Shown one piece after another: positions 3,515 through 63,175 of a stretch of 64,000 bases of DNA. The notes under the pieces were generated by a model. It did no database searches and was not told the origin of the DNA. It was given only the letters and a program-made list of their open reading frames with translations. This DNA comes from Escherichia coli O157:H7 (GTDB taxonomy: Bacteria > Pseudomonadota > Gammaproteobacteria > Enterobacterales > Enterobacteriaceae). Within the stretch, counting starts at the first letter, position 1, and each line of letters begins with the position of its first letter. The translations under genes and the position numbers were made by a program. The stretch is from the NCBI RefSeq assembly GCF_013167455.1, contig NZ_CP038330.1. One strand, written 5' to 3'.

Positions 3515-3528
3515 TAGAGGAATTAAGT

Positions 3529-4017: not shown

Positions 4018-4022
4018 AACAA

Positions 4023-4045
4023 TTAAGGGGCCGTCGGCCCCTTAT
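4023..4045 (+). terminator. rho-independent terminator-like hairpin
   Basis: GC-rich inverted repeat AAGGGGCCGTCGGCCCCTTA followed by T-rich run, just after the stop at 4017. Confidence 0.5.
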
Positions 4046-4107
4046 CTTTAATTACCCAAGTTCTTTTGATACCTGAGCTACAATAGTTTTAAATCAGAAT
4101 ACCAAAA

Positions 4108-4386: not shown

Positions 4387-4411
4387 AATCACCACCTGAT
4401 AGCTCATCAGA

Positions 4412-4618
4412 CTATCTAACTATTAGACAAAACATCCCTTTTTCAATTTCTGTCTCTCTCGCCTCATGGGCCAATACAATATCCGCGATAACACGAATAT
4501 TCCCTTCATAGTTGCGAATGGCCGCATCCCGCATCGTGTCTAAAGTGTCCTGACACTTCGCTCGCCTGAATTTAACGAGCCAACTTTGCCGATCTATCTT
4601 GTCCACACCAAATCCCAT
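4412..4618 (-). CDS. hypothetical protein (68 aa)
   Basis: ORF packed between flanking operon genes. Confidence 0.4.
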   Translation of the reverse strand: MGFGVDKIDRQSWLVKFRRAKCQDTLDTMRDAAIRNYEGNIRVIADIVLAHEARETEIEKGMFCLIVR

Positions 4619-5236: not shown

Positions 5237-5291
5237 AATTCCGCCCCCAAAGAGGTGTTGCTATAAAACATGGTTTGAACATCTGGCGCTG

Positions 5292-5948
5292 TTATTGCGC
5301 CCACCGATACTCTGGGCAACGCACTCTGTTGTGGCCGCTTTTCCCTTTGCTATTGGTGATGTCATCTTCATTCTTCGCAGCCCCCAGCTTACTCAGTATT
5401 TCAGCTTTTGTGGCGCGATGACCGCGTATTAAAAGAGCATTCAGCAGGTATCCAGTGAACACCTCTGTACTCGGCATACGGTCAAGCAACTCAACATACT
5501 GCTCATCCGTCAAATCATGGATCTCACAATATTTTTCCACCGCCTTTTCGTAGGCTTCTGCGTAGCCATGAGTGGAAATCCTGAAAACAATATCCCCATT
5601 GCCGTAGCCTGGCTTTGTGACGAGAAAACAAGGTGCGAAGTAGGTTCTCTTCACCCCCATCCGGCTCCGGTTCTCGATACTGATATAAGCCCTCAGCCCC
5701 TCAGCAATGATATTTGGCCCGGAGTTGCGTCGCCGCTTACAAGTCTTATTCTGACGCTTCACCTCTTCTGCCTCAGCTTCCCACTTTCGGTCCAAGCTGT
5801 AGGCCAGCCGGTGAGCTGTTGCGTAGGAATACTCTCTCAAGGAGAAGTATTCCTGCCGGTAATCATCCGCCACCCCAACTGTTCGTGCGACACGGAACCC
5901 GACGAAACCGGCGTCATGGGTTCCCTCGCCGTAGTAAATGACTGCCAT
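5292..5948 (-). CDS. hypothetical protein (218 aa)
   Basis: Start overlaps the stop of the upstream methyltransferase-like gene (translational coupling). Confidence 0.5.
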   Translation of the reverse strand: MAVIYYGEGTHDAGFVGFRVARTVGVADDYRQEYFSLREYSYATAHRLAYSLDRKWEAEAEEVKRQNKTCKRRRNSGPNIIAEGLRAYISIENRSRMGVKRTYFAPCFLVTKPGYGNGDIVFRISTHGYAEAYEKAVEKYCEIHDLTDEQYVELLDRMPSTEVFTGYLLNALLIRGHRATKAEILSKLGAAKNEDDITNSKGKSGHNRVRCPEYRWAQ

Positions 5949-7375: not shown

Positions 7376-7378
7376 TGG

Positions 7379-7879
7379 TCAACCTCTTTTCTTCTTGTTT
7401 TGCTCGCGCTTCACCATTGCTCCAGCAGCTTTCAGAAGTCTCTGGTTCTCCGCCAGCTCCTCTTGGAGTTCCTGAGTATCCTCTTCTGTCTGAGCCTTTT
7501 TCAGCTCGGCCTCGCAATATTGGACCTCTTCCTGCAAGCTGACTTTCGCAAACTTGAGAGCGGCCAGTCGCGTCGTATAAACGCCAAAAGGCAATTCGCC
7601 ACCTTCCCGGAACTGCTTCAAGCACCAGCTCGGTATAGATGGCAACCAACCAAAGTCCCCATTCTTCCGTGACCTTTTCCCCCACGTAATCCCATCTAAC
7701 TTTTGGGCAAGATTGACATAGCGTTGATCGCTGGTTGAGTTGCGTCGTTTCTGAATAGAGCGAACTATCCACTCTGTAACCTCGACCTTTGCTTTATCAT
7801 CATCAGAGATGTAATAAAGGGCTGCGTACAACACAGCGCCTTTACGAATGACTGATGGTGGGTATGCCTGGGCTTTCAT
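7379..7879 (-). CDS. hypothetical protein (166 aa)
   Basis: ORF in operon; coiled-coil-like C-terminus. Confidence 0.45.
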   Translation of the reverse strand: MKAQAYPPSVIRKGAVLYAALYYISDDDKAKVEVTEWIVRSIQKRRNSTSDQRYVNLAQKLDGITWGKRSRKNGDFGWLPSIPSWCLKQFREGGELPFGVYTTRLAALKFAKVSLQEEVQYCEAELKKAQTEEDTQELQEELAENQRLLKAAGAMVKREQNKKKRG

Positions 7880-7887
7880 CTATCCCC

Positions 7888-8220
7888 CTATCGCTTTTTC
7901 TTTCCGACAAGACGGAGATGATCGGCGGCCAAGTCATACTGCTCGTTTTTGTCGCGGCGGCGGAATCTGTCAAAAAACTTCCCTCGTGGCAGGGTTTCTT
8001 CCATAGCGATCAGGCGGTTCAGCCACACTTCTTGAGGTAGCATCCCTGCTGGAGTCGGCCCGAGCTTACGTCCTTCCTTGACGTGCTCCATTGTTTGCGT
8101 GGCAGTAAAAATCGCACCACCAAACTTTCTCCACTTGAATTGCAGGGGCATATCTGGAGACTCATCCAGCATCAATTTCTTATTGGTTTGTTCTGTCACG
8201 ACAATTACTCCACCATCCAT
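7888..8220 (-). CDS. hypothetical protein (110 aa)
   Basis: ORF in operon, short overlap with upstream gene. Confidence 0.4.
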   Translation of the reverse strand: MDGGVIVVTEQTNKKLMLDESPDMPLQFKWRKFGGAIFTATQTMEHVKEGRKLGPTPAGMLPQEVWLNRLIAMEETLPRGKFFDRFRRRDKNEQYDLAADHLRLVGKKKR

Positions 8221-8711
8221 TCTTCACTAAGCAGGAACGCCCAGCGCTCTTCTGCTTTTTCTGGGTTGTCTTTGGCCTGTTTGATCATGATCTCGGCGGC
8301 GTTAAAGCCTACCTCTCCACTGAACCGGCCCCATGAATGGCTATGCCACTCGCGCATCACACTTCGGCCAAGCGATGCAAGTTCTGGACTTACACCCTCA
8401 TGGAGGGCATAGAGCTCCCAAGCATCCCACCCGTATCGTAATAGGTTGTGCCCTGGGGCGTTAAAGGCCTGAGCAGCCTTGAACCGCTCTCCAGGCTCCT
8501 TCCCTCTAACATCCACACCCTGGAGCACCAACCCCATTACCACTTCAATGACAGGCTCGCGTTGCTTCTTTGCCAGCTCGATGGCAGCCACCAGCATTGC
8601 TTTGGCGTCAACAAATTTCCCATGCCCTTGGCACATACCGCAGGTTTCTTTGGAAGGGGAAAAGTCATAAACACCGGAACCAGCACAAAGGCGGCATGTC
8701 AGGTCAATCAT
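8205..8711 (-). CDS. hypothetical protein with DnaJ-type CxxCxGxG zinc-finger repeats
   Basis: MIDLTCRLCAGSGVYDF...CGMCQGHGKF; start chosen at the Met giving an 8-bp overlap with the upstream gene (track start 8729). Confidence 0.4.
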   Translation of the reverse strand: MIDLTCRLCAGSGVYDFSPSKETCGMCQGHGKFVDAKAMLVAAIELAKKQREPVIEVVMGLVLQGVDVRGKEPGERFKAAQAFNAPGHNLLRYGWDAWELYALHEGVSPELASLGRSVMREWHSHSWGRFSGEVGFNAAEIMIKQAKDNPEKAEERWAFLLSEEWMVE

Positions 8712-9411
8712 GGGCTCTTCTCTCCTCATACTCTTCGATGCGCTCTTTCAGACGCTGAACCACTGGTGCGAGCTCAGGGATAGCTTCCGCTTCCTCAAGC
8801 GTGTATCGCTTGTCTTCCTGGTAATCGACTATTTGAGGAGGCCTTGGCTGTTTAGGGAACTCAGCAAAGTCATTCAGCGACATCGAGGTAGGAAGTCCTC
8901 CTTCAATCTCACCTTTTTCGTTGAGTGACTGAGTGACGATAAGCTGTGTTCCGCCCACCTCGGTATCAAAGCGGTCATCAAAGCGCTCACCGATAGTCCA
9001 GCCGCCACGGCCAAGAACACAGGTCGTACTCATACGTAGGCGATTGAATGCTTTAGCGTCATCCCAGTTCAAAGGATTTTCATCCATGAGGAAAAAAGGC
9101 GCTTCGTCCCGAACGAACACCTTGGACTTGGCGTTATCGAAGATCGGCCCAAACACCCCCTGCTGGAGGTATGGTTCGACTTTCTCTGCAAGATCCTGGT
9201 GCCCTTGAGAACGCAGCGCCTCATAGAGCTGGGTGATTGTTTGTTTGCCGGTGTCCGGAAGGCAGGACAATACTGTCTGCTTTTCCTCGTCACTCAGGCT
9301 TACCATTCTGGACAAAAAGCTGACTACCAGCTCGTTGTGCCCATCGACCGTTTCAATGTTGAGCTTGTTCTCGTCCATCTTCTTCCTCAGTAATCGGTTC
9401 GATAAATTCAA
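8704..9411 (-). CDS. hypothetical protein
   Basis: ORF in operon; true start may be the internal Met at 9378. Confidence 0.4.
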   Translation of the reverse strand: MNLSNRLLRKKMDENKLNIETVDGHNELVVSFLSRMVSLSDEEKQTVLSCLPDTGKQTITQLYEALRSQGHQDLAEKVEPYLQQGVFGPIFDNAKSKVFVRDEAPFFLMDENPLNWDDAKAFNRLRMSTTCVLGRGGWTIGERFDDRFDTEVGGTQLIVTQSLNEKGEIEGGLPTSMSLNDFAEFPKQPRPPQIVDYQEDKRYTLEEAEAIPELAPVVQRLKERIEEYEERRAHD

Positions 9412-9634
9412 TGGAGTCCATGCTTACATGACTGATAATGGCTTTCAGGCCGCAGCAGTCGCATGGTTCAAAGGTCAGTTCTGATCCCTTGGGAGACTGA
9501 TGCGTGACCGTTGCCACAGCCCCTAGAGGGATCAACCCCCAGCCGTTTTTTAGTACCCGAGTAGTTCTGACCAGCCGACCTTTGTACTCTCGTTTCAGTT
9601 TCGGATGCGGCACTACCGCATATCGCTTACTCAT
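9353..9634 (-). CDS. hypothetical protein (~94 aa)
   Basis: Start taken at internal Met (MSKRYAVV) to avoid a 95-bp overlap with the upstream gene. Confidence 0.35.
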   Translation of the reverse strand: MSKRYAVVPHPKLKREYKGRLVRTTRVLKNGWGLIPLGAVATVTHQSPKGSELTFEPCDCCGLKAIISHVSMDSIEFIEPITEEEDGREQAQH

Positions 9635-10013
9635 TTCGGTCCCCTTGTACCAAAGGCTCGACAACCAGCTCTTGAGCTTCGTCCCAGTCGGACACCTTTG
9701 CATCACCAAACGCAAAGGCAATTCGCATAGCCACTGTCGGCCTGCCTATTTTCATCAAGTAAGCCGCAGCACCGGCACACATCGACTCTTGTCCCGAAGG
9801 TGCATAGTTACCCTCTTCATCCCATTCACCACCTGACTTTGAGTGCACGGTCTTGTGGCAATGAAACGTCGTCATGTCGTTTTCAACGATGTCGTTGATG
9901 ATGCCTTCTAATCGCCCAGGGGCCAGCTCGATAGCGCCCTCCTTCCGGAATGGACAGTTGGCGCAAGGTTTCTTCAAACGGAGATGATTTGCTTGCTTTG
10001 GCATACATATCAC
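9627..10013 (-). CDS. hypothetical Cys/His-rich protein; first gene of operon
   Basis: CANCPF...HCHK motifs; followed without gaps by ten same-strand genes down to 4108. Confidence 0.45.
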   Translation of the reverse strand: MICMPKQANHLRLKKPCANCPFRKEGAIELAPGRLEGIINDIVENDMTTFHCHKTVHSKSGGEWDEEGNYAPSGQESMCAGAAAYLMKIGRPTVAMRIAFAFGDAKVSDWDEAQELVVEPLVQGDRNE

Positions 10014-10102
10014 TTTTACAGCATCATTTTATGATTCTATGATATAGCCATATTCCGTGTAGTCAATATCTCACTAACAATTACTTTCTATCGGACGCTT
10101 AC

Positions 10103-10119
10103 GCGCCCATTTTGGGCAG
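10103..10119. promoter_or_regulatory. candidate activator box GCGCCCATTTTGGGCAG
   Basis: CC-W5-GGGC inverted-repeat motif ~90-105 bp upstream of the operon start at 10013; similar boxes at 400-416, 36339-36353, 50344-50366. Confidence 0.35.
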
Positions 10120-10178
10120 ATAGACAAGTTATTTGGGCGTTTGGGCGTTTGGAGTGTGCGAGGTGGACAGCGGGGAGA

Positions 10179-10194
10179 CTTTCACATGTGAAAG
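10179..10194. promoter_or_regulatory. 16-bp palindrome CTTTCACATGTGAAAG (copy 1 of 5)
   Basis: Perfect palindrome in the divergent intergenic region; identical copies at 13594, 44203 (core), 50310, 58351. Confidence 0.6.
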
Positions 10195-10330
10195 TTTTGT
10201 TTCTTGGTATCGTTTTATTGTCTCTTGATATTATTTTATGATGCTGTAATAATCATAAATAAGGGCCGCATCGCTCTTCGACCTTCGTTGCAGCCCTTAC
10301 AACACAATCAAGCAATTAAGGAGCTTTGTT

Positions 10331-10474
10331 ATGCTGCAAGGCAATACTAACACGAATAAGCGCATCCCGCTCGCGGCGTTCATGAAATGGCCGCTGGCGA
10401 AACGTCAGGACTTCATCGACCGGGAAATGTCCGGTTGCCCCGACTTTATCAAGACGTCTTTGCTTCGGCATTAA
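10331..10474 (+). CDS. small hypothetical ORF (47 aa)
   Basis: ATG preceded by AAGGAG; followed by a hairpin terminator; below the ORF-track size cutoff. Confidence 0.3.
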   Translation: MLQGNTNTNKRIPLAAFMKWPLAKRQDFIDREMSGCPDFIKTSLLRH

Positions 10475-10496
10475 GGCGATCAGGCAGGAAAGCAAA

Positions 10497-10527
10497 GAAC
10501 CTCGCTTCGGCGGGGTTCTTCGTTTCT
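10497..10527 (+). terminator. terminator-like hairpin
   Basis: AGAACCTCGC-TTCG-GCGGGGTTCT stem-loop followed by a T-rich run. Confidence 0.4.
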
Positions 10528-10565
10528 ACCTCTTGAATGTTTCGTCAGAACAAACTGGAGCGCTT

Positions 10566-11201
10566 ATGTCACCAGAAACACAGCAACTTACATCCAAGGC
10601 TTTATCTCTCATCGAGCAGTCCCGATACAGAATGGGCACATCTCGGTTTGTTGAGGCCTTTATTGACCAGTGGGCATACTTGCAGACTGGCCTATACCCA
10701 GCCAAGGAGGAGATCCCGGAAGAACTTCAGCCGGTCGCCTTCGAGCTCTCTCACGTCCTGTCTGCCGCCATTAAGCGCGACCCCACCAGCGATGTTTTGG
10801 GTTACGTCCTAAGCATGTCTGGCTTCCACAAGAAGGGCACCAATTACTTCCCCACTCCTCCAGAGATTGGCCGCTTGATGTCACTCATTGTTGGCTCACA
10901 GTCTTCGGCAGACTTTTATGAGCCCTGCTGTGGTTCTGGCATCAACGCCATTCACTGGATGGAAAACCTGATCGAGAACCACGGTCCCGAAGCATTGAGA
11001 GAAGCCTCAATCTACCTGGAAGACATCGATCCGTTGATGGTGAAGTGCTGCATGATCCAGCTATTCCATTATTTCGAGTCCCGCAATACCACTCCCAAAA
11101 CGCTGAGTATCGTCGGCATAGACACCCTTAGCAGACGAACCAAGAACATCGCCTACTACGCCGAAAAACCTCCAGCAACCGCCGCTACCGTGGCAGCATA
11201 A
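10566..11201 (+). CDS. SAM-binding N6-adenine methyltransferase-like protein, short (211 aa), lacking the NPPY catalytic motif
   Basis: YFPTPPEIGRLM and DFYEPCCGSGINAI match the TP..V and DPxCGSG motifs of gamma-class N6-MTases; no NPP(Y/F/W) before the stop; ATG at 10566 with GGAG RBS. Confidence 0.45.
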   Translation: MSPETQQLTSKALSLIEQSRYRMGTSRFVEAFIDQWAYLQTGLYPAKEEIPEELQPVAFELSHVLSAAIKRDPTSDVLGYVLSMSGFHKKGTNYFPTPPEIGRLMSLIVGSQSSADFYEPCCGSGINAIHWMENLIENHGPEALREASIYLEDIDPLMVKCCMIQLFHYFESRNTTPKTLSIVGIDTLSRRTKNIAYYAEKPPATAATVAA

Positions 11202-11228
11202 AAAAACCCGCCGATTGGCGGGTTTTGC
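11200..11228. terminator. bidirectional rho-independent terminator
   Basis: AAAAAAACCCGCCGATTGGCGGGTTTT between convergent genes. Confidence 0.65.
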
Positions 11229-11253
11229 ATTCAATGCGCTGCTCTATGGCACC

Positions 11254-11526
11254 TTACAGTTTTCCGTACCGGTTCAAGAACGAAGACCTGTCTAAGATCC
11301 CCCAGTCTGTCAGCATGTAGTAGCCGGTGGCACCTCGTTCGCCGGTAGACTCCCTGACGAACAAGATATTCATTCCGAACTCATCACGCAGGGCAGACAA
11401 CTGTCTCTTGATCGTTGATTCAGGAATATTTGTTGCCTTGTGAAGGTCTTGGAGACTTGGCTTCTCCGTTTTAGACAGGGCATTCACCAAAGCAAATTTT
11501 CTTTTCATGTCCTGTGAGATCTTCAT
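11254..11526 (-). CDS. small HTH DNA-binding protein, third gene of the parAB operon
   Basis: ATG at 11526 with AGGTG RBS (track shows GTG at 11532); immediately downstream of parB as orf 053 is in IncC plasmids (recollection). Confidence 0.45.
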   Translation of the reverse strand: MKISQDMKRKFALVNALSKTEKPSLQDLHKATNIPESTIKRQLSALRDEFGMNILFVRESTGERGATGYYMLTDWGILDRSSFLNRYGKL

Positions 11527-11574
11527 ATTCACCTGTTCTTGACAGGCCCAACCTCTCTGGCTGGGCCTCCTTTA

Positions 11575-12756
11575 TTAGCCTTCGACACTCAGGAGTTCAA
11601 TGTCTGACACAGGCACATGAACATGCTTTTCCTTGCCTTCGCCATCGAGCGTTTTAACCCAGACAGTAGACGGAACCAGAGCAACACGGTCGGTCATGAT
11701 GACTCCACGTTTGGTCTCGCCATCCAGGTTAACGTTGACAGCAAAAATCAAACTGTCAGCCCGGACGTTCTTCCATTCCTTGTCCTTCGGCAGAGGAGGA
11801 AGAGCATCACCGCCTTCTTCATCTTTGTCCTTGCCGCTGTTATCTGGCTGCTTGACAGGATCTTTGTGCTCACCCTCTTCATCACGCAAAGGGTCTTCGT
11901 CATCATCGTCCTGACCATTGGAATTTTTACCCCCTTCCAGTTCCTCCTGGGCAAGGTTCAGGTCGTCATTCCCGGTTTGTTCCGACGTACCATCCCCACC
12001 CGAGTTGAGGGATTGCTCGTCGGTGTTGCCAGCGCCAAGCTCATCATTCTGGTGGGAGCCAGTCAGTGGGCCTTTTTCCATTTCGTCTTTGATACGTTTG
12101 GCATCATTCAGCAGCTCACGGCTTTGTTTACGAGTAATCCCGTCAGACATAGCCACCGCGCAGACGGCGCGACATCTTTCTTCATTCAGATCGAACAAGA
12201 GACGAAGGTTATTCAAGGTCTCTGTATCAGAACATACTTCATTATCGTATAACTCACGCACACAGTCAGGTAGCTTGAGCAACGACAGATGCGTAGATAC
12301 GAAAGTGATATTCTTACCGAGCCGATCAGCAATATCCTTTTGCTTCCAACCTTCTTCAATAAACAGGTTTAACGCCTCGGCAATCTCTACCGGAGTCAAG
12401 TCATCCCGCTGGATGTTTTCGATCAGCTCACCAGCAGTCTCGTCCAAGTTGTTCTGGACCTTATCATTCACCACCAAGTCAATGGTCTCGATACCAGCGT
12501 GTTTACACGCTCTCCAACGCCGCTCCCCTTTTTGGATGACGAACTTGCCTTCTTCGTTCTTCGGGAACACGATGATCGGAGACTGCTGCCCTTCGGTCAG
12601 CAAGGTTGCCGCCAGCTCTTCAATGTTACGGAAGCGCTTACGAACCTGGACCTTGGATACAACGTCGTCAACAGGTACGGTAAGAACCTCTTTGCCTTTC
12701 TTGCCTTTGGCGGCTTTAGCAAGTTCGGACAGGCCTTTTAAATTGTTCAATGCCAT
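11575..12756 (-). CDS. parB: ParB partition protein (ParB/Spo0J nuclease-like domain)
   Basis: 393 aa; ParB N-terminal domain (IIVFPKNEEGKFVIQKGERRWRACKHAG); acidic low-complexity C-terminal half; directly downstream of parA. Confidence 0.85.
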   Translation of the reverse strand: MALNNLKGLSELAKAAKGKKGKEVLTVPVDDVVSKVQVRKRFRNIEELAATLLTEGQQSPIIVFPKNEEGKFVIQKGERRWRACKHAGIETIDLVVNDKVQNNLDETAGELIENIQRDDLTPVEIAEALNLFIEEGWKQKDIADRLGKNITFVSTHLSLLKLPDCVRELYDNEVCSDTETLNNLRLLFDLNEERCRAVCAVAMSDGITRKQSRELLNDAKRIKDEMEKGPLTGSHQNDELGAGNTDEQSLNSGGDGTSEQTGNDDLNLAQEELEGGKNSNGQDDDDEDPLRDEEGEHKDPVKQPDNSGKDKDEEGGDALPPLPKDKEWKNVRADSLIFAVNVNLDGETKRGVIMTDRVALVPSTVWVKTLDGEGKEKHVHVPVSDIELLSVEG

Positions 12757-29770: not shown

Positions 29771-30409
29771 TCACGGTGTCCTAGATGACATGGTCTGCAA
29801 CAGATGTCGATTAAACTCCTGGCCCAAGCCGAAAGCCTCGTGGACACTGACGATCGCCAATCCTTCCAATCCTTGATGCTTGGAGGCCCAGTCTTCCGCC
29901 GTCGGGACAGATGCAAAGAAATGTACATGGCAACAGAAGGACTGACGAACGTCGGCTGCTTCCTGCGGCAATACCAAGGACACCGCCATGCCGGCAGGTT
30001 CGACAGCCTGTATCTCGCTGGGTGAAACCGTGAGTGAAACGGGTGCTCCGGTTGCAGCGCAATGCGATGAGACGCGAGCTGTACGGCCGATCAGCGCCGG
30101 AAATATCAAGGTGTCCAGCGCGCACCAGGCATACAGACGGCGGTCGTCAATTTCAAAGACATACGAAGTCTCGCGCAAGGTGAGGCCGTAGCCGATGATG
30201 TTCCCATCTTTGTCATATTCGGTACTGGTGGCCTGTTCGAGTACGGCGGCCACTCGCTCAGCGGGCCAGTCGAGAATCCCGGCAAGTGTCGTTCGTGAAA
30301 CCGGACGCCCCTTGGCGAGTTCCCGCAGTAGCGGGACCAAGAGATCCGCAGTACCATTGGTACGATTGACCGAAGTGAGACGTTCTAAAATATATGGGGC
30401 GAGCTTCAT
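29771..30409 (-). CDS. merB: organomercurial lyase MerB
   Basis: Start [19 protein letters not shown]; conserved Cys/Asp region; position between merA and merD. Confidence 0.9.
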
Positions 30410-30423
30410 GGTTCCATCTCCTT

Positions 30424-32172
<1,749 letters not shown>

Positions 32173-32180
32173 TCAGTGCC

Positions 32181-32456
32181 TCACTTCTTGACGCTGGACG
32201 GATAGCCCGCGTCTTCGGTGGCCTTGGTCAGCTTCTGCACGCTGGTCTTGGCATCATCGAAGGTGACAACCGCTTCGCGTGTCTCGAAGGTCACGTTAAC
32301 TTTGCTGACGCCTTCGACCTTGGAAATCGCCTTCTTAACGGTGATCGGACAAGCGGAGCAGGTCATGCCCGGTACGGACAGCGTGACGGTCTGGGTGGCG
32401 GCCCACACGGGGGCAACAACGGCAGCGATGGCGAGAGAGGCAAACAGTTTTTTCAT
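32181..32456 (-). CDS. merP: periplasmic mercury-binding protein MerP
   Basis: 91 aa; signal peptide; GMTCSAC metal-binding motif. Confidence 0.95.
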   Translation of the reverse strand: MKKLFASLAIAAVVAPVWAATQTVTLSVPGMTCSACPITVKKAISKVEGVSKVNVTFETREAVVTFDDAKTSVQKLTKATEDAGYPSSVKK

Positions 32457-32471
32457 GATGAACTCCTGTGA

Positions 32472-32822
32472 TTAATAGAAAAATGGCATGACGTAGGGAA
32501 ATCCGAGCGCGACCAGAACCAGCGCGGCCACGACCCAGAAAATGAGCTTGTAAGTAGCGCGCACTTGGGGAATCGCACACACATCCCCTGGTTTGCAGGC
32601 TTGCGCCGGTCGGTAGATGCGCCGCCAGGCGAAAAACAGCGCCACCAACGCCGCGCCGATGAAGATCGGGCGATAAGGTTCCAACACCGTCAAGTTGCCG
32701 ATCCAAGCGCCGCTGAACCCCAGGGCGATCAGAACCAGCGGCCCCAGGCAGCAAGCCGAGGCGAGGATGGCGGCTAGCCCGCCAGTGAAGAGCGCCCCGC
32801 GCCCGTTTTGAGGTTCAGACAT
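32472..32822 (-). CDS. merT: mercuric transport protein MerT
   Basis: 116 aa; TM helices with CC pair (ASACCLGP). Confidence 0.95.
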
Positions 32823-32893
32823 ACGCTTGTCCTTTCAAATCTGGATTGGATAGCTTAAGCTTACTTCCGTACCAATGTACGGAGTCAAGCGAT
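32823..32893. promoter_or_regulatory. mer operator/promoter (divergent merR / merTPABDE)
   Basis: MerR dyad TCCGTAC-N4-GTACGGA at ~32866-32883 between divergent merT and merR. Confidence 0.8.
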
Positions 32894-33328
32894 ATGGAAA
32901 AAAATTTGGAGAATCTGACTATTGGCGTTTTCGCCAAGGCGGCCGGGGTCAACGTGGAAACAATCCGGTTCTATCAGCGCAAGGGCTTGTTGCCGGAGCC
33001 GGACAAGCCCTATGGCAGCATCCGCCGCTATGGCGAGGCGGATGTGACGCGGGTGCGCTTCGTGAAATCAGCCCAGCGGCTCGGATTCAGCCTCGACGAG
33101 ATCGCAGAGCTGCTGAGGCTGGATGACGGCACCCACTGCGAGGAAGCCAGCAGCCTGGCCGAGCACAAGCTTCAGGACGTGCGCGAAAAAATGACCGACC
33201 TGGCGCGCATGGAAACCGTGCTATCCGAACTTGTGTTCGCCTGCCATGCGCGGCAAGGGAACGTTTCTTGCCCGCTGATTGCTTCGCTGCAAGGGGAGAA
33301 AGAGCCGCGTGGTGCCGACGCGGTGTAG
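32894..33328 (+). CDS. merR: MerR transcriptional regulator
   Basis: 144 aa from [36 protein letters not shown] track over-extends upstream. Confidence 0.95.
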
Positions 33329-33344
33329 CCGAGGGTAGTTACGC

Positions 33345-33361
33345 CTTAGCGTGCTTTATTT
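33345..33361. repeat. inner part of the Tn21-family 38-bp terminal inverted repeat (mer end)
   Basis: CTTAGCGTGCTTTATTT immediately before the IS4321-like insertion; continues at 34689. Confidence 0.75.
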
Positions 33362-34688
33362 AATGAGATGGTCACTCCCTCCTTCCCGGTACTATGCTGA
33401 GGACAGGCTTTCATTCGGAGAACTATCATGGAAAACATTGCGCTCATTGGTATCGATCTGGGTAAAAACTCTTTCCATATTCATTGCCAGGATCGTCGCG
33501 GGAAGGCTGTTTACCGTAAAAAATTTACCCGGCCAAAGTTGATCGAATTTTTGGCGACATGCCCCGCTACAACCATCGCAATGGAAGCCTGTGGCGGTTC
33601 TCACTTTATGGCACGCAAGTTGGAAGAGTTGGGGCATTCCCCAAAGCTGATATCACCACAATTTGTCCGCCCGTTCGTTAAAAGCAATAAAAACGACTTT
33701 GTCGACGCCGAAGCTATTTGTGAAGCTGCATCGCGTCCGTCTATGCGTTTTGTGCAGCCCAGAACGGAATCTCAGCAGGCAATGCGGGCTCTGCATCGTG
33801 TCCGTGAATCCCTGGTTCAGGATAAGGTGAAAACAACCAATCAAATGCATGCTTTTCTGCTGGAATTTGGCATTAGCGTTCCCCGAGGAGCTGCCGTTAT
33901 TAGCCGACTGAGTACCATTCTTGAGGATAATAGTTTGCCTCTTTACCTCAGCCAGTTATTGCTGAAATTACAACAGCATTATCACTATCTTGTTGAGCAG
34001 ATTAAAGATCTGGAATCCCAGTTGAAACGAAAGTTGGACGAAGATGAGGTTGGACAGCGCTTGCTGAGCATTCCCTGCGTCGGAACACTGACAGCGAGTA
34101 CTATTTCAACTGAGATTGGCGACGGGAAGCAGTACGCCAGCAGCCGTGACTTTGCGGCGGCAACAGGGCTTGTACCTCGGCAGTACAGCACGGGAGGTAG
34201 GACGACATTGCTGGGAATTAGTAAGCGAGGTAATAAAAAGATCCGAACTTTGTTGGTTCAGTGTGCCAGGGTATTCATACAAAAACTGGAACACCAGTCT
34301 GGCAAATTGGCCGATTGGGTCAGGGATTTACTGTGCCGGAAAAGCAACTTTGTCGTCACTTGTGCTCTGGCAAACAAGCTGGCCAGAATAGCCTGGGCCC
34401 TAACGGCACGACAGCAAACTTATGTAGCATAACGGCAGAAATACACCGGTTTAAAGAATTACTGATCTGGTTTTGCGAATACTGATATTGATGATACTAA
34501 CGGCCCACCGGCCTGTTGAGGAACCTGTAAAACGGAAAGGCTCATTGAAGCCGTATATTTTCTGGAGGTTCATCAGGCGCGGAACTCATCAAGGCGCGGG
34601 AATAAAATCCCATTCAGACGCCGGATAGATTCAAGCAAGCCAACTTGTCGTCAAAATCGGTGTTGCAAAAACGGGAGTGACCATAGAT
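33362..34688 (+). mobile_element. IS4321/IS5075-like element (IS110 family), 1327 bp, inserted in the Tn21-family IR
   Basis: Length 1327 bp, IS110-family transposase, precisely splitting the 38-bp IR, the known target of IS4321/IS5075. Confidence 0.85.
33428..34432 (+). CDS. IS110-family transposase
   Basis: 334 aa; DEDD-type N-terminal domain (IGIDLGKNSFHIH) and C-terminal domain typical of IS110 family. Confidence 0.9.
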   Translation: MENIALIGIDLGKNSFHIHCQDRRGKAVYRKKFTRPKLIEFLATCPATTIAMEACGGSHFMARKLEELGHSPKLISPQFVRPFVKSNKNDFVDAEAICEAASRPSMRFVQPRTESQQAMRALHRVRESLVQDKVKTTNQMHAFLLEFGISVPRGAAVISRLSTILEDNSLPLYLSQLLLKLQQHYHYLVEQIKDLESQLKRKLDEDEVGQRLLSIPCVGTLTASTISTEIGDGKQYASSRDFAAATGLVPRQYSTGGRTTLLGISKRGNKKIRTLLVQCARVFIQKLEHQSGKLADWVRDLLCRKSNFVVTCALANKLARIAWALTARQQTYVA

Positions 34689-35562: not shown

Positions 35563-36288
35563 ATGATGACATTGACTACCGTCTCGAAGAAAACTTCAAA
35601 TAATTCAGCCCTTGTATTCTGGCGCGTTGGTACAAAACGGAAAGGCATCCTTGATGTCCATATTGATTTTGACCACGAAGAAGCGGATCTTTTGGCTGAG
35701 CTCGTAGCCATTCGCTATCTGGCGCTGGACAAACAGGTTTTTTGCAGAGAGCCAGGTGCTGGTGCTGGTTACAAGCTGGTGGTATCCAAAGGTGCAATCA
35801 AGAAGCTGGCGCTGGGCAAATCCACCAAGGCTTTTGCTTTCAAGTTTGCGGCTTGCCTCACTGGGCGTTTAAAGGGCGCTACTATTGAAGTCTCGCAGAG
35901 CATGGAGTTTATGGATGAGCCGGGAGAGGGCAACATTGAGCTCCTCGATGTGGACAAGCAAGCCTATACCCAGACCCATGACGAAATATCTACACCTGCC
36001 ATTGGCCCCGTCCTGGTTACTCAACATGCCATCGATCAGTATCAGGCCCGGATAACCTCTGGAGACCCTAAAAAACCGTGGGCCTCACTTGTTGGCCGCC
36101 TCCAGCATCCAGAGTTACAGGTTCAGCCCTTTGACGAGAAAGTGGCTCGCCATAAAGCCAGAAAGTATGGCCGCGTAGATAACGTGGAAGTCTGGGGCCA
36201 TAGAGATTCCAAGTTCAAGTACCTGATGGTGATCAACGACGACAACCAAAAACGTGTTCTTGTCACAGTGTTTGAGCGAAATGAGTAA
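35563..36288 (+). CDS. hypothetical protein (241 aa)
   Basis: ORF with reasonable spacing; no motif recognised. Confidence 0.5.
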   Translation: MMTLTTVSKKTSNNSALVFWRVGTKRKGILDVHIDFDHEEADLLAELVAIRYLALDKQVFCREPGAGAGYKLVVSKGAIKKLALGKSTKAFAFKFAACLTGRLKGATIEVSQSMEFMDEPGEGNIELLDVDKQAYTQTHDEISTPAIGPVLVTQHAIDQYQARITSGDPKKPWASLVGRLQHPELQVQPFDEKVARHKARKYGRVDNVEVWGHRDSKFKYLMVINDDNQKRVLVTVFERNE

Positions 36289-36338
36289 CCTGCTTCTCAT
36301 TTGTTCTGAATACACAACCTCTCCAAATCACGTATTCA

Positions 36339-36353
36339 TACCCTAAAAGGGCA
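36339..36353. promoter_or_regulatory. candidate activator box ACCCTAAAAGGGCA upstream of rhs
   Basis: CC-W5-GGGC motif ~65-80 bp upstream of the rhs start. Confidence 0.3.
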
Positions 36354-36420
36354 ATAACGCAGTCGTTGATAACGACTCTCCCACCTGAAAATAGCTCCAG
36401 CATAAAAACTGGAGCTGTAA

Positions 36421-39400
36421 ATGAGATCGAGACCTTCCCTTTTACTGATGCGAAACCTGCGGTCATTGGCCGTTGTGGTGCTCGCAACTTTGCCATGCGT
36501 TGCTTTTGCACAATGGCGGGTTGTAGCCGTGAGCACCGAAGTAGACAAAATGCGCTTCAACACCATCATAGACGCGCATTCCTTCATGAAGAATTATCGC
36601 TCTGGTGAGGAGCAAGGGAAGGGAACGCCAGTTGGGGATGCGCTTTATCCGGTTGCCAGTTATGGTGATGGCCGTTATGTCTCCAGGATCTGTTTTAAGT
36701 ATCTAGGTGCTACTGGCGATTATGACCCCACTACCTGCACTGGCGACCCAGCTACGGTCTACTGGCGCTCAACCTATGTTCTGCCGGGTGAGATGGATAA
36801 AACACCGTTCCTGGACAGGGATCTCGGCTTACCAACAACGACCATGTGTGTAGGGAACCCTATCCATCTTGGCACCGGCAACAAGTTCCAGGCTGAACTG
36901 GATTATCAAAGCGGAGGCTCCGACCCTTTCACATTCACCAGATACTACAATAGCCACCTTCCTGATGAAGAGCTCGGCGGCTGGCGGCATACCTACTCGC
37001 GGAGCGTCGAGGTCAACGCCTCGAAGTACGGTGAGAACATGGTTGTCCTGCACCGGCCAGAAGGGCAACAACTCGCGTTCTACAACTCGTCCTCTGTCTG
37101 GGTGCCAACATGGAAAACCGATGATACCTTGACGAAGGATGCTACCGGCTGGCGCTACACTCAATCTGACGGGGTAGTCGAGGCCTATGATGAAACCGGA
37201 CGACTGACCGGCATCGAGAAGCCCAACGGCAATCACATCACCCTGAGCTATCTGAACGGAGAGCTATCCTCGATCACTGACGGCTTTGGCCGCACCATCC
37301 AGTTCCAGTATCAAGATGGCCGCATGGTCAGTGTCACCGATCCTGCTGGTGGCAGTATTCAGTACCAGTACAACAGCGCTGGCAAGCTGGCGGAAGTGAT
37401 CTACCAGGACAATACGAGCCGCAGCTATCTCTACGATGACCCGAATGCACCGGGTTTGCTCTCTGGGCTGGTGGACGAGAACGGCAACCGTTTCGCCACA
37501 TGGGGATATGATACTCAGGGGAGAGCGGTTCTAAGCGAACACGCCGGGGGCGCAGAGAAAACTCAGGTAAGCTACAACGCTGACGGAAGCGTCTCTGTCA
37601 CCAATGCCCTCGGCCACGTTCAGCGATACACCTACAGTCGCCACAATGGGATGCTCAAGCCTGATGTGGTTGAGGGTGCGCCGTGTACCGGCTTTGTGGG
37701 CGGCAAGGAAACCTACGTCTACGACAGCAAAGGCCTCGTCTCCAGCATTACTGACCGCGCTGGGCAGAAGCGCACGTTCACCCATAACGACCGGGGATTG
37801 GAAACCACCCAGATAGACCAGGACGGGGGTAAGGTTACGACCGACTGGCTTCCTTCCAAGTCGCTCCCGGCAAAAATCACAGAACCAACCAGGATCACTG
37901 AGCTCACCTACGACACTCATCTCCGGGTGATAAGCCGCAAGGTCACTGATCGCAGCTCGGGCGCTTCCCGGACATGGACCTACACCTATGCCCCTGTTGG
38001 TACAGGAAAGCCGAGCCTGTTGGCCTCGGTTGATGGTCCGCGCACCGACGTCAGCGATGTTACGACATTTGACTACGATGACCAGGGCAACCTGATCCGG
38101 ACAACGAACGCGCTGGGGCAGGTGACGCAGTTTGGTGACTACGACGCGAACGGTCGCGCCGGGACCATTCAGGGTGTCAATGGTGTAACCCAAACCCTCA
38201 CCTATGACGCCAGAGGAAGACTTGTCAGCTCCACTGGGCCAGAAGGAACCACGGTCTACAACTATGATGCTGTGGGCCTCCTGAGTTCGCTGACCAAGCC
38301 AAATGGTGCAACCGTCAGCTATGAGTACGACGCTGCACATCGGCTGGTGGCGGAAACAGATGCACAGGGCAACCGGCGCGAGCTTGAGCTCAATGACCTC
38401 GGGAACCCAGTAGAAGAGCGACTGCTCGATGCGCTGGGCCAGACCCGTTGGATAGAGCGCCGGATCTTCAACGAAATCGGCTGGCTCTCCAGTGTCTCCG
38501 ACGCCTATAGCAATCAGTCATCGTTTTCCTACGATGTGGTGGCAAACCTGATACAGGAGACCAGTCCCTCTGGTAACACACACTCCTACAAGTACGACGG
38601 CTTCCATCACCGGACACAAACGACCGATCCCCTCGGGAAGGTCACGCAGGTGCTCTACAAGGATACCGGCGATGTTTACCGTGTCTCCGACCCTCGTTCG
38701 CGCCTGACCTACTACAGCTACAACGGCTTTGGCGAAGTGACCCAGGTCCGGAGCCCGGACACCGGCACCACCGACATTACCTATGACGAAGCCGGTAACG
38801 TGGCAACGCGCAAAACGGCCAAGGGGCAAACCACAAGCTACAGCTATGACGCGCTGAACCGGATCATCGAAACCTCCAGCGATGTCGCTGGCGAATCGCC
38901 AATTCTGTACGGGTACGACGAAGCAACCTCACCATACGGCATAGGCCGCTTGACCTCAGTCGATGATGGCAACGGTGTCCGGAGATTTGGCTACACCCCC
39001 GAAGGATGGCTGGCTTACGAAACCTGGGAAACCCACGGGCAGAGCCTGACTACCCAGTACCAATACGATGGTGCAGGCCTCGTCACGAAGATCACGTATC
39101 CCAGTGGCCGTGAGGTCTCCTACACCCGTGACTCAGCCGGTGACGTCATCGAGGTGACAACGACACAAGCAGGCACCACAACAAACCTGGCAAGCCAGAT
39201 TGAGCGAGCGCCCTTTGGCCCCGTCACCAGTATGGTCAGAGGGAACGGCATTTCAGAAAGCCGCACTCTGGATCTCGATTACCGTGTCACCGGCATCGAC
39301 GCTGCTAGGGTGCATTCGCTGGTCTATCGGTACACGCCAGACTCGTTGATTTCAGCCATAGACGACAATCTCAGCTCATCAGTCAATCAGTCACTCGGTT

Positions 39401-40674
39401 ATGACGCGGTTGGCCGCATCACCTCTGCTGAGGGGATCTATGGCGTTTTGGGCTATGGCTATGACGCCACCGGCAACAGGACCTCGATCACGACCGATGG
39501 CCTGAGCCAAAGCTACACCATCAACTACATGAACAACTGGTTGGTGAAGGCCGGGCAAACCTCCAGAAGCTATGACGCCAATGGCAACCTGACGAAGCAG
39601 GGGGCGGATACCTTCACCTATGACAGCCAGAACCGGCTGGTGGCCGCAACGGTCGCGGGAGTGACTGTAAGCTACACATACAACCATCTGGATCAGCGTG
39701 TAACCAAGACCCTAAACGGGCATACCCGGCTGCTGGTTTACGACCTGGCAGGAAACCTCATCGAGGAGCTGGACGCGGCCACTGGAGACGTGCTGGCGGA
39801 GTACATCTGGCTCGATGGGACACCCTTGGGCTTTGTTCAGTCAGGACAGACCTACCAAGTCCACGTCGATCACCTGGGCACCCCGAAGGCACTGACCGAC
39901 GTCAGCGGCCAAGTCGTTTGGAAGGCGAGCTACAGCCCGTTCGGTAAGGCCAGCATCATCATCCAGGGGCCAACCTTCAACCTGCGATTCCCAGGACAGT
40001 ATTACGACGCGGAGACCGGGTTCCACTACAACTGGCGGCGTTACTACGACCCAGCGACCGGGCGGTACATTACCAGCGACCCTCTTGGCCTGATCGATGG
40101 AGTAAACACCTACGGGTATGTGCATGGAAACCCTATGTCCAATACCGACCCGACGGGTGAATTTGCGTTTGTTGGTGCAGGTATTGGAGCTGGGTTGGAG
40201 CTACTTAGCCAACTAATCGAAAATAATGGGAGTTGGAAATGTGTTAGTTGGTCAAAAGTTGGAATCGCCGGAGCGATTGGGGCTATAGGTGGCGGCTGGG
40301 CGTCAGGAGTTTTCAGACATGCCAGCTCCGGTAAATCGTGGTTCAAATTAAGCCAAAAATGGAGCAATGTCTCACCCAGAGTAAGGAAAGTTCAAGGGGT
40401 TCCACGAGGTAATGAGCTTCACCATTGGGCTATTCAGAGAAATGGCAAGTTTGGCAAATATGTTCCTGACTCAATAAAAAACCATCCTTGGAACTTGAAG
40501 TCCATTCCAAGAGATATTCACCAAAACATTCACGGCAATGGACCTACCCCATATAGCGCATTTGGTCGTTGGTGGCACGGGACGCCTGAATGGGCAAAAG
40601 TAGCTCAAGCCTCTCCTGTTAGTGGTGGTTTAGCTGATTCAATAAATGATGAGGGATGCGGTTGTGCAAATTGA
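36421..40674 (+). CDS. rhs: Rhs/YD-repeat polymorphic toxin with Sec signal peptide and C-terminal HNH-like (LHH-type) nuclease domain
   Basis: 1417 aa; signal peptide MRSRPSLLLMRNLRSLAVVVLATLPCVAFA; many YD repeats; Rhs core end DPLGLIDGVNTYGYVHGNPMSNTDPTGE; C-terminal ~170 aa with glycine-zipper segment and ELHHW...HPWN...HQNIHG. Confidence 0.9.
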   Translation: MRSRPSLLLMRNLRSLAVVVLATLPCVAFAQWRVVAVSTEVDKMRFNTIIDAHSFMKNYRSGEEQGKGTPVGDALYPVASYGDGRYVSRICFKYLGATGDYDPTTCTGDPATVYWRSTYVLPGEMDKTPFLDRDLGLPTTTMCVGNPIHLGTGNKFQAELDYQSGGSDPFTFTRYYNSHLPDEELGGWRHTYSRSVEVNASKYGENMVVLHRPEGQQLAFYNSSSVWVPTWKTDDTLTKDATGWRYTQSDGVVEAYDETGRLTGIEKPNGNHITLSYLNGELSSITDGFGRTIQFQYQDGRMVSVTDPAGGSIQYQYNSAGKLAEVIYQDNTSRSYLYDDPNAPGLLSGLVDENGNRFATWGYDTQGRAVLSEHAGGAEKTQVSYNADGSVSVTNALGHVQRYTYSRHNGMLKPDVVEGAPCTGFVGGKETYVYDSKGLVSSITDRAGQKRTFTHNDRGLETTQIDQDGGKVTTDWLPSKSLPAKITEPTRITELTYDTHLRVISRKVTDRSSGASRTWTYTYAPVGTGKPSLLASVDGPRTDVSDVTTFDYDDQGNLIRTTNALGQVTQFGDYDANGRAGTIQGVNGVTQTLTYDARGRLVSSTGPEGTTVYNYDAVGLLSSLTKPNGATVSYEYDAAHRLVAETDAQGNRRELELNDLGNPVEERLLDALGQTRWIERRIFNEIGWLSSVSDAYSNQSSFSYDVVANLIQETSPSGNTHSYKYDGFHHRTQTTDPLGKVTQVLYKDTGDVYRVSDPRSRLTYYSYNGFGEVTQVRSPDTGTTDITYDEAGNVATRKTAKGQTTSYSYDALNRIIETSSDVAGESPILYGYDEATSPYGIGRLTSVDDGNGVRRFGYTPEGWLAYETWETHGQSLTTQYQYDGAGLVTKITYPSGREVSYTRDSAGDVIEVTTTQAGTTTNLASQIERAPFGPVTSMVRGNGISESRTLDLDYRVTGIDAARVHSLVYRYTPDSLISAIDDNLSSSVNQSLGYDAVGRITSAEGIYGVLGYGYDATGNRTSITTDGLSQSYTINYMNNWLVKAGQTSRSYDANGNLTKQGADTFTYDSQNRLVAATVAGVTVSYTYNHLDQRVTKTLNGHTRLLVYDLAGNLIEELDAATGDVLAEYIWLDGTPLGFVQSGQTYQVHVDHLGTPKALTDVSGQVVWKASYSPFGKASIIIQGPTFNLRFPGQYYDAETGFHYNWRRYYDPATGRYITSDPLGLIDGVNTYGYVHGNPMSNTDPTGEFAFVGAGIGAGLELLSQLIENNGSWKCVSWSKVGIAGAIGAIGGGWASGVFRHASSGKSWFKLSQKWSNVSPRVRKVQGVPRGNELHHWAIQRNGKFGKYVPDSIKNHPWNLKSIPRDIHQNIHGNGPTPYSAFGRWWHGTPEWAKVAQASPVSGGLADSINDEGCGCAN

Positions 40675-41086
40675 ATTTCCAGCGCTGCTTGTGAGCAGCA
40701 AGAAAAGGTCGCTCTTCGTAGTGGCATCAGAATCCGAGTTCGGGAAATGTACTATTCAGTCTTTGAGGAACGGTTATTTTGAGCTGATGGACATTTATGA
40801 TTCGGAAGGTCGTCACTACAAAATAGACGAGGTTGCGAGCTACAAGCCGCTAAGTCCATTCTGGTACTGGCCTGTAGAAATTGTGATGTATGGTTCTCGA
40901 CTGTTTAAGGCTAATTTCAATGCTGTTCTTATCTCTAATCTGGATTGCAAGGAGTTAAAATCTGAACTTTGTGATTTGGCTAAAAAGTACAGAAGTAATT
41001 TGGATTCCGGCGTCGGAATTGAAAAGATTATGGAGGAAATGGAGTCTGCCAGAACAATTAAAGAATTGATAAAGGTTTTTGGCTAG
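40646..41086 (+). CDS. putative cognate immunity protein for the Rhs C-terminal toxin (start uncertain)
   Basis: ORF overlapping the rhs stop, typical toxin-immunity arrangement; no known domain recognised. Confidence 0.5.
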   Translation: MMRDAVVQIEFPALLVSSKKRSLFVVASESEFGKCTIQSLRNGYFELMDIYDSEGRHYKIDEVASYKPLSPFWYWPVEIVMYGSRLFKANFNAVLISNLDCKELKSELCDLAKKYRSNLDSGVGIEKIMEEMESARTIKELIKVFG

Positions 41087-41238: not shown

Positions 41239-41709
41239 AAGGGGGATTTCAGAGAAATGAAGAATAAGAAGGTAATAACTTTGATAATGGCCGCAGCCGC
41301 ATCATGCTCGTCAGTCTACGCCGCGACATTACCGACCAGTGAGGTAGACGCATACATACTTGCGATGAACACCATGTCACCTATCACTGCAAAGTACACC
41401 ATCTAGTACAAGCAAGCGGTTGAGCAGAAATGCAATACAGCCCTGAGCGTTGAGCAGCTCAACTCAAAGGCATTCACCAATGTTGTCCAGGCAATGGTGA
41501 GTAGTGAGACCGTCGATAGAATGGGGCTTGATGCTGCTGGTGGATCACTCCAGGATACCCTGTCTGTGATCGGCAAGAACGTCACATGCAGTGACCTGAA
41601 CGCGCCATTTAAAGCACTCTTGGATGATAAGGACTTCACCAGAAAGCATCAGCACCTATCGAAGGTGCTGCATACTTGGAATGAAGTTGTTTCTCAAAGC
41701 AAACCCTGA
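41239..41709 (+). pseudogene. signal-peptide protein gene interrupted by an in-frame TAG
   Basis: Frame opens at 41239 (MKNKKVITLIMAAAASCSSVYA...), has TAG at 41401-41403, and continues in the same frame as track ORF 41494..41709. Confidence 0.35.
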
Positions 41710-62696: not shown

Positions 62697-63175
62697 AAAG
62701 ATTGCTTTTAGATTGCTTTTCGATTGCTTGCCGCGTGTTGGATAGAGAATAAGGCTAAAAGCGGGGACAGATGGCCTGTGTAATTGCCCAAAAGGGGCAT
62801 ATAGGTTGCTTTTCGGTGGCTTTTTGATCGTTGAGTAAGGGAACCTATGGGAACGCTGCACGGATAGGCTCAGATAAACAGACCTTACCCTCGCATCGAG
62901 AACCGCTTGCCCTCCAGCATCGAGAGACGGTGGTAAAGAGGCATTTGGAATCTTTGATGCCATATCCAATATATCTGGAATCTTTAAATATAGATTCATA
63001 TGTAAAGAGGCTGTGAAAGAATAAGAGCATCAAGATTCCAGATAGATAGAGGGAAATTTGACAAATTCCAAAGATGGGTTAGCCTAGTGACAGAACTAGA
63101 TTCCAGTATTGGAATAATCAGCTTTAAATTCCAGATAGATAGTTATGTGGATAGGAATTGGATAGGAATTGGGAG
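62697..63175. repeat. centromere-like repeat region upstream of the parM-like gene
   Basis: 3x GATTGCTTTT (62697-62730), 2x GGAATCTTT, 2x ATTCCAGATAGATAG, 2x GGATAGGAATT (63150-63171). Confidence 0.5.

Follow-up and report, generated by a model that had tools for sequence, protein, structure and literature searches.

rhs1 of type 1 IncC plasmids encodes an Rhs protein with a predicted signal peptide, a predicted LHH-like nuclease tip and a linked putative immunity gene

We analysed a 64,000-nucleotide stretch of Escherichia coli O157:H7 DNA (NCBI RefSeq assembly GCF_013167455.1, contig NZ_CP038330.1; one strand, referred to as the window), focusing on an rhs gene and the open reading frame (ORF) that overlaps its end. 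An earlier note, made from the sequence alone, had described a 1417-amino-acid (aa) Rhs ORF and a 146-aa ORF at 40646-41086 (+), and both are present as described. The rhs ORF runs uninterrupted from an ATG at 36421 to 40674 (+) and is rhs1 of the type 1 IncC (IncA/C2) conjugative plasmids, a name already in the literature as a typing marker of IncC plasmids (PMC6872532). A 5.5-kb query around rhs1 and the downstream ORF matched 1010 records in PLSDB, mostly from Klebsiella, Salmonella and Escherichia. Most of these (937 of 1010) are typed as conjugative, and the single record inspected among the matches was IncC / MOBH / MPF_F. Together with the published typing, these matches show that rhs1 is a real and already known gene. 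In the literature that we searched, rhs is mentioned solely for typing or as a hotspot of insertions, and the signal peptide, tip families, immunity genes and cassette boundaries of IncC rhs are not described. What is already known is the rhs gene and its control by AcaCD, the conjugation activator; four further points appear to be new. These are the reading of rhs1 as a Sec-type, conjugation-co-regulated Rhs, an apparently uncatalogued family of LHH-like predicted nucleases with its immunity family, what appears to be a portable Tse5-like hairpin module, and the exact boundaries of the cassette that separates IncC type 1 from type 2. The features of the locus are as follows.

36334-36362 (+): AcaCD-binding motif, core ACCCTAAAAGGGCA at 36340-36353; position transferred from plasmid pVCR94
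36391-36418 (+): 10-bp hairpin, its 3' arm holding the Shine-Dalgarno GGAG at 36411-36414
36398-36399 (+): AcaCD-dependent transcription start, 22-23 nt before ATG 36421; transferred from pVCR94, where it was mapped by rapid amplification of cDNA ends (5'-RACE)
36421-40674 (+): rhs1 coding sequence, 1417 aa; ratio of non-synonymous to synonymous substitution rates (dN/dS) of 0.137 against the rhs2 shell
36421-36510 (+): predicted Sec-type signal peptide, aa 1-30, with predicted cleavage between AFA and Q
36511-36852 (+): N-terminal domain, aa 31-144, restricted to A/C-like plasmids
36853-37080 (+): DUF6531 (Rhs N-terminal plug region), aa 145-220; Pfam PF20148, E 3.6e-13
37081-40077 (+): YD-repeat shell, with matches to RHS_repeat, TEN_YD-shell and PF03527
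40078-40161 (+): DPLGL-x18-DPTGE autoproteolysis motif, aa 1220-1224, 18 residues, aa 1243-1247
40162-40320 (+): predicted glycine-zipper helical-hairpin pre-toxin module, aa 1248-1300, from an AlphaFold2 (AF2) model, hydropathy and a profile match to Tse5-CT
40321-40671 (+): predicted HH-motif ββα-metal domain (HNH superfamily, LHH-like; here the HH domain), aa 1301-1417
40420-40425, 40480-40482, 40519-40521 and 40531-40533 (+): codons of the key residues of the HH domain (HH, N, H and H, respectively), from residue conservation
40664-41086 (+): putative cognate immunity gene, 140 aa from GTG 40664; the alternative start ATG 40646 gives 146 aa
41117-41155 (+): vestige of ~40 nt of the rhs core, a direct copy of 39892-39930, at the right cassette end just past the immunity gene

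RefSeq places the start of the Rhs protein at GTG 36529, which would delete the signal peptide. ATG 36421 is the best-supported start, as it has a GGAG Shine-Dalgarno site 6 nt upstream, lies 22 nt downstream of the AcaCD-dependent transcription start and opens a signal peptide whose character is kept in diverged homologues. The n-region of this peptide has a net charge of +4 with four arginines, the 15-mer of its h-region has a mean Kyte-Doolittle hydropathy of 2.56, and an AxA site is present. A 64%-identical homologue (P0166) has a different N-terminal sequence with the same signal-peptide character, reading MRHFLLLLLFVILPGLSMA before the cleavage point and QWRVVAV after it. The Rhs protein of a Vibrio harveyi plasmid likewise has a signal-peptide-like N-terminus, which ends in LLALIVPSAVSA before QWR, and a signal peptide is also found at the start of other full-length proteins bearing this tip. 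A lipoprotein signal was ruled out, because Cys26 is preceded by a proline at -1 and homologues have no cysteine there. No PAAR domain was found in a Pfam scan of residues 1-1000, and the PAAR model was absent from the four longest full-length proteins bearing this tip. The Sec signal peptide without PAAR proposed in the earlier note is thus also our prediction, from the Pfam scan, the charge, hydropathy and AxA site, the published transcription start and the N-termini of the homologues. The domain that follows (aa 31-144) matched nothing in Pfam or NCBIfam and gave only chance-level hits in a PDB sequence search. A tblastn search placed it in 819 plasmid records (773 of these conjugative); its carriers are all A/C-like plasmids or metagenome contigs that share A/C-like synteny.

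The shell contains at least 12 RHS_repeat matches at E <= 1e-3, in addition to Teneurin TEN_YD-shell and the RHS core PF03527 (aa 1148-1178, 39862-39954, E 1.7e-11), all from Pfam. A full YD shell ending in DPxGL...DPTGE had been claimed before; the Pfam matches and the motif, which can be read from the translation, agree with this, and the sequence supports rhs1 as an Rhs/YD-repeat polymorphic toxin. In the shell, rhs1 differs from rhs2, the allele of type 2 plasmids, by 79 synonymous and 36 non-synonymous changes, and the low dN/dS that results indicates that the Rhs has been under purifying selection.

The two alleles exchange their ends as a unit. The rhs2 allele is 96.8% identical to rhs1 up to position 40092 (the last DPLGL codon), with differences that increase toward this junction, and is identical again from 41122. 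Between these two points, the tip of rhs2 matches EndoU_bacteria (E 1.6e-9) and is followed by the gene of a 90-aa 'MafI family immunity protein' and by two further small membrane-like ORFs (80 and 111 aa) that are absent from the window. An example of this arrangement is found at 8160-9547 of the V. cholerae plasmid pVIC11-A, with the EndoU end, the MafI-family gene and two ORFs with predicted membrane helices. The ~40-nt core copy at the right end of the cassette can be read as the kind of trace left by tip replacement through recombination. Comparison of the tips among related plasmids, a check suggested in the earlier note, thus revealed a common shell that is followed, in the second allele, by a different tip and immunity gene.

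The rhs1 tip and immunity gene were found in 522-529 plasmid records and the shell in 956. Across ~500 records, tip and immunity gene share 99% identity or more, which is uninformative on current selection. It could therefore be argued that rhs1 is a decaying passenger without present function, whose uniformity results from recent common descent only. The frequent disruption of rhs and the neighbouring vcrx130 homologue, which is a pseudogene in the window, fit this explanation. We nevertheless regard it as very unlikely, as the 4.25-kb frame is intact, the dN/dS of the shell is low and the gene has a dedicated AcaCD promoter with a mapped transcription start. Moreover, two different and complete toxin-immunity cassettes are maintained, and the architecture is kept in more distant Vibrio plasmids.

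The tip consists of the 171 residues after DPTG, in which a glycine-rich hydrophobic segment precedes ELHHW...NHPWN...HQNIH. Just 13 close relatives were found among 5.8 billion proteins, and the whole tip had no match in Pfam (even at E <= 10) or NCBIfam and no close match in the PDB. In an alignment of 12 sequences, H88, H89, N108, H109, P110, N112, L113 and H121 (tip numbering) are invariant and H125 is nearly so; HH and H121 are also invariant among 60 members of the HH-domain family. When 1.84 billion representative proteins were searched with a profile, 534 clusters were found to carry the HH domain at E <= 1e-3. In all 159 members retrieved, which range from 70 to 3590 aa, the domain is C-terminal or lies within ~30 residues of the C-terminus, and the long proteins that were scanned match RHS models. 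None of the 60 family members matched a Pfam toxin model, even at E <= 10.

AF2 modelled the core of the isolated HH domain with a pLDDT of 87-95, as a strand, strand and helix around HH and HxxxH. In the model, this is the ββα-metal fold of the HNH/EndoVII (His-Me finger) superfamily. In a Foldseek search of AFDB50, the top annotated match outside the family was an 'LHH domain-containing protein' (E 2.9e-4, 28% identity), and proteins annotated 'HNH endonuclease' ranked next. The Tox-LHH signature comprises N, LHH, E, H, H and W (Zhang et al. 2012); the HH domain has the N, [LVA]HH, HxxxH and W, with NHPxNL in place of E. As the likeness in fold and residues comes without a match to Pfam LHH, the model makes the HH domain an LHH-like domain of the HNH superfamily and a predicted nuclease, and not a member of Pfam LHH. 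The LHH-type HNH/EndoVII nuclease that the earlier note saw in the tip is therefore retained with regard to its fold, its HH/N/H/H residues and its Foldseek neighbours, and dropped with regard to Pfam LHH membership. A search of the tip against toxin families likewise matched no Pfam toxin model. HH-domain toxins also show a semi-conserved CxC motif at the extreme C-terminus (CGC, 40654-40662), where the model is of low confidence.

The segment before the HH domain was modelled by AF2 as a helical hairpin, with helices at tip residues 2-21 and 31-53. It is the sole hydrophobic stretch of the Rhs protein apart from the signal peptide. The profile of the whole tip matches Tse5-CT (8cp6_C) at E 2.6e-4, and a profile of 24 module sequences does so at E 8.2e-6 over two collinear segments; a Pfam scan of 24 hairpin modules yielded no match for the toxin parts. 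The match to Tse5-CT is confined to the N-terminal hairpin, and the remainder of Tse5-CT is not common to the rhs1 tip. In 112 family members, the sequence ahead of the HH domain was long enough for its module to be classified. Of these, 34 have the same glycine-zipper module right behind DPTGE, 50 have another conserved module, and 28 show neither pattern. The second module, which has no Pfam match, reads ...PGFxESLIPVWGSGRQAIxDFQxG...NxxLAxSDVFLVK... before the same HH domain (its 50 carriers are among P0034-P0158). Because the HH domain also stands behind this quite different pre-toxin module, we read it from the sequences as the constant payload and the hairpin as the exchangeable part. 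This exchangeability and the precedent of Tse5 suggest, by analogy, that the hairpin acts as a membrane-insertion or translocation aid. A word-indexed search with the hairpin profile found at least five short proteins, and a few short proteins (P0176 and P0177) carry the hairpin without the HH domain. The C-terminal CxC is also seen in one of these (P0176, which ends in CECE).

The ORF that overlaps the rhs stop had been put forward as the expected immunity gene. A GAGGG site lies 8 nt upstream of GTG 40664, the N-termini of homologues align there and RefSeq uses the same start, so that the gene probably starts at GTG 40664 and not at the ATG considered before. Tip homologues on an Acinetobacter calcoaceticus chromosome and on three metagenome contigs are each followed by an ORF of 126-154 aa, usually overlapping. 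These ORFs and the one in the window are homologous, with leave-one-out hidden Markov model scores of 31-69 bits compared to at most 14 bits in 2000 shuffles. On the Vibrio harveyi MOBH/MPF_F plasmid, the Rhs ends in the same tip (167 bits), and an ORF of the same family comes after it (97 bits). Tip and homologous downstream ORF are thus linked in six of six loci, the window included, and this linkage and homology sustain the putative immunity function with the refined start. The predicted protein had no match in Pfam or NCBIfam, and a PDB profile search gave only chance-level hits. Its maximum 19-residue hydropathy is 0.94, with no transmembrane segment. The chromosomal Rhs of A. calcoaceticus (1468 aa) likewise starts with a Sec signal peptide and is rich in cysteine in its N-terminal region; it is followed by its immunity gene and then by an orphan HH-type tip with a matching immunity gene (959-6989 overall).

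These observations bear on an alternative in which the tip is a membrane-depolarising pore former like Tse5-CT and the HH domain is accessory or metal-binding, with no nuclease activity. Tse5-CT is a pore-forming toxin with spontaneous membrane insertion, by which cells are depolarised (PMC10684867, PMC9637101), and it is the sole significant match of the tip among solved proteins. The short proteins that have the hairpin but no HH domain and the lack of any nuclease model that matches by sequence also speak for this alternative. On the other hand, in a family of 534 clusters the HH/N/H/H residues show no or almost no variation, as would fit a catalytic site, the fold matches HNH nucleases, and the HH domain recurs as a constant payload behind the other pre-toxin module. 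Furthermore, Tsi5 is an integral membrane protein with two transmembrane regions (PMC9637101), whereas the immunity protein encoded here is predicted to be soluble, which points to an enzymatic target in the cytoplasm rather than to pore formation. We therefore consider a pore former unlikely.

The expression of rhs has been studied in pVCR94. There, an AcaCD peak found by chromatin immunoprecipitation with exonuclease treatment (ChIP-exo) and its motif lie at 94587-94615 upstream of vcrx128 (p 2.5e-9; Carraro et al. 2014 Table S3, PMC4207636), the AcaCD-dependent transcription start is at 94651-94652 by 5'-RACE, and RNA-seq shows vcrx128 expression rising from 0 to 349 once AcaCD is supplied (PMC4207636). 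We converted pVCR94 coordinates using the offset from vcrx127, which is the ORF at 35563-36288 of the window, and represented the pVCR94-type allele by a V. cholerae plasmid that carries the same allele. The window promoter differs from this sister allele at one of 321 bases. The AcaCD box, at about -35, is thus present in the window with its spacing, whereas the measurements of binding, transcription start and induction come from pVCR94 and not from the window plasmid. The earlier suggestion that an upstream box makes rhs transfer-induced hence finds its support in the sister allele. The core motif has been published as GCCCAAAATGGGC (PMC5058578). An International Union of Pure and Applied Chemistry (IUPAC) pattern for the box skips the rhs box, the spacer of which is off by one base. 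Further close matches to the core, GCCCAAAATGGGC and GCCCAAAAGGGGC, are found at 10105-10117 (-) and 62786-62798 (+), and presumably mark other transfer promoters.

The leader hairpin that overlaps the transcription start folds at -16 kcal/mol (z = -5.3). As the start mapped in pVCR94 lies inside the 5' arm of the hairpin, only transcripts that read through from upstream could form it; RNA that begins at the mapped start is missing the 5' arm, and its folding energy is just -3 kcal/mol. The hairpin may thus keep the toxin untranslated unless AcaCD fires. We ruled out that it is a terminator, because no T-run follows it.

The regulation of rhs is also relevant to the idea that the pair stabilises the plasmid from within the cell, by addiction similar to type II toxin-antitoxin systems and without export, as proposed for Salmonella Rhs elements. 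A plasmid-borne toxin with an overlapping immunity gene would suit such a role, which has been suggested for related Vibrio plasmids (PMC12406693, citing Starsta et al. 2020). However, the conserved Sec signal peptide argues for export, expression is zero without AcaCD, unlike in a constitutive addiction module, and many plasmids persist in which rhs is interrupted by insertion sequence (IS) elements or resistance islands. Of the explanations weighed here, addiction is to us the least probable, and we give it very little credence.

Taken together, we think it likely that the locus encodes an AcaCD-induced, Sec-exported Rhs with a predicted nuclease tip and a cognate immunity gene, the tip and this gene being exchangeable together as a cassette. 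Transferring the results from pVCR94, AcaCD at ~36340-36353 would start an RNA at ~36398, with a 22-nt leader that leaves GGAG free. The sequence and its conservation suggest that the 1417-aa precursor would then pass through Sec and be cut after Ala30. As is known for this protein family, the YD shell would enclose the tip, and the DPLGL-x18-DPTG aspartyl-protease motif would free it inside. The hairpin would insert in the inner membrane of a target cell and carry the nuclease domain to the cytoplasm, where nucleic acid would be cut. In plasmid-bearing cells, the soluble 140-aa product, which is linked to the tip, would neutralise the nuclease, presumably by binding. The tip and immunity gene are exchanged as a cassette, as seen in type 2 plasmids, where an EndoU RNase tip and a MafI-family gene occupy the same junction.

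Several points weigh against this interpretation. The start codon annotated in RefSeq leaves the Rhs without a signal peptide, and both the HH domain and the immunity protein went unrecognised by every Pfam, NCBIfam and PDB sequence model. Toxicity could come from the Tse5-like hairpin itself. The AcaCD data stem from the rhs2 allele, though its promoter is nearly identical, and in pVCR94 the immunity gene is as silent as the toxin gene without AcaCD (PMC4207636), which weakens the case for a strong present-day role. Finally, in many plasmids that persist, IS elements or resistance islands have broken up rhs, and most of those listed are typed as conjugative. The gene is thus dispensable for plasmid maintenance and probably for transfer.

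The surroundings of rhs show further features. In the window, 30000-34432 contains a mercury-resistance operon that ends in merR, and the transposase of the IS110-family element IS4321 (33428-34432). This segment lies ~2 kb upstream of rhs and resembles the edge of a resistance island adjoining rhs. In a metagenome contig with an A/C-like backbone (3321-11815), rhs ends after 164 aa, and genes for a HamA protein with a helicase and for a PglZ-domain protein (of phage-defence type) lie beyond it on the opposite strand. In this contig too, rhs seems to mark a hotspot of insertion. Downstream of the cassette, the vcrx130 homologue (41258-41709) corresponds to a protein of 150 aa whose start resembles a signal peptide or that of a lipoprotein. 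Compared to a type 2 plasmid, a CAG codon has become TAG at 41403, so that it is a pseudogene in the window.

Much of the multidrug resistance of enterobacteria and Vibrio is carried by IncC plasmids, which rank with the main vehicles of it, and for more than a decade their rhs gene has served as a type marker only. If an active toxin is made alongside the mating machinery, conjugation would carry a killing or kin-discrimination function, which could shape the coexistence of plasmid types and their hosts. The predicted Sec association, the hydrophobic pre-toxin modules and a control shared with the mating apparatus point to a route that is free of a type VI secretion system (T6SS), and rhs1 would then be a tractable Gram-negative example of an Rhs toxin delivered without it. 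The catalogue of polymorphic toxins would gain a nuclease-toxin family of ~530 clusters and an immunity family, and the Tse5-type glycine-zipper hairpin may be a portable module that takes enzymatic payloads across membranes.

A bolder proposal, which we offer as speculation and believe to be unlikely, is that this Rhs is a contact weapon coupled to conjugation. It would be made only with the transfer genes on, wait in the donor periplasm and be passed on at mating contacts without a T6SS, with the tip crossing the recipient inner membrane by itself through its Tse5-like hairpin, and the leader hairpin would block translation of read-through transcripts. As the type 1 and type 2 cassettes (HNH-like and EndoU, respectively) would not be cross-protecting, incompatible IncC lineages could kill each other's hosts. 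Contacted cells that fail to establish the plasmid would be killed as well.

Finally, we compared the locus with known systems. The window gene is rhs1 of the rhs1/rhs2 pair of typing markers of IncC plasmids (Harmer & Hall; vcrx128-vcrx129 of pVCR94); AcaCD binding, transcription start and induction were measured for vcrx128, whose promoter is one base in 321 away from that of the window. With the T6SS Rhs effectors Tse5, RhsA and Rhs1, rhs1 shares the YD shell, the DUF6531 plug region, the DPxGL-x18-DPxG self-cleavage motif, a C-terminal toxin predicted to be encapsulated and an adjacent putative immunity gene. It differs from them by a predicted Sec signal peptide and a plasmid-restricted N-terminal domain in place of PAAR/prePAAR, and its expression is tied to a conjugation activator rather than to a T6SS. 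In the tip, the first ~55 residues align with Tse5-CT (PDB 8CP6 chain C) as GAxxGAGxxLxxQ and KC[VI]xWxxVGxxAAxG. However, Tse5-CT has a 20-residue insert between its two helices and a different C-terminal half where rhs1 has the predicted HNH-fold domain, and its immunity protein Tsi5 is a membrane protein, unlike the predicted soluble product of rhs1. The HH domain has its modelled ββα-metal fold in common with Tox-LHH (Pfam PF14411), as well as [LVA]HH, the upstream N, the downstream HxxxH and W, and the C-terminal position in Rhs proteins. In contrast to Tox-LHH, it lacks a profile match, its L is not invariant and NHPxNL stands where E is listed, and its immunity family is unrelated to Imm-SUKH and matches no library searched. 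The DNase domains of colicins E7 and E9 have no detectable sequence similarity to the HH domain, and whereas these colicins are delivered by receptor-binding and translocation domains, rhs1 has the Rhs shell.

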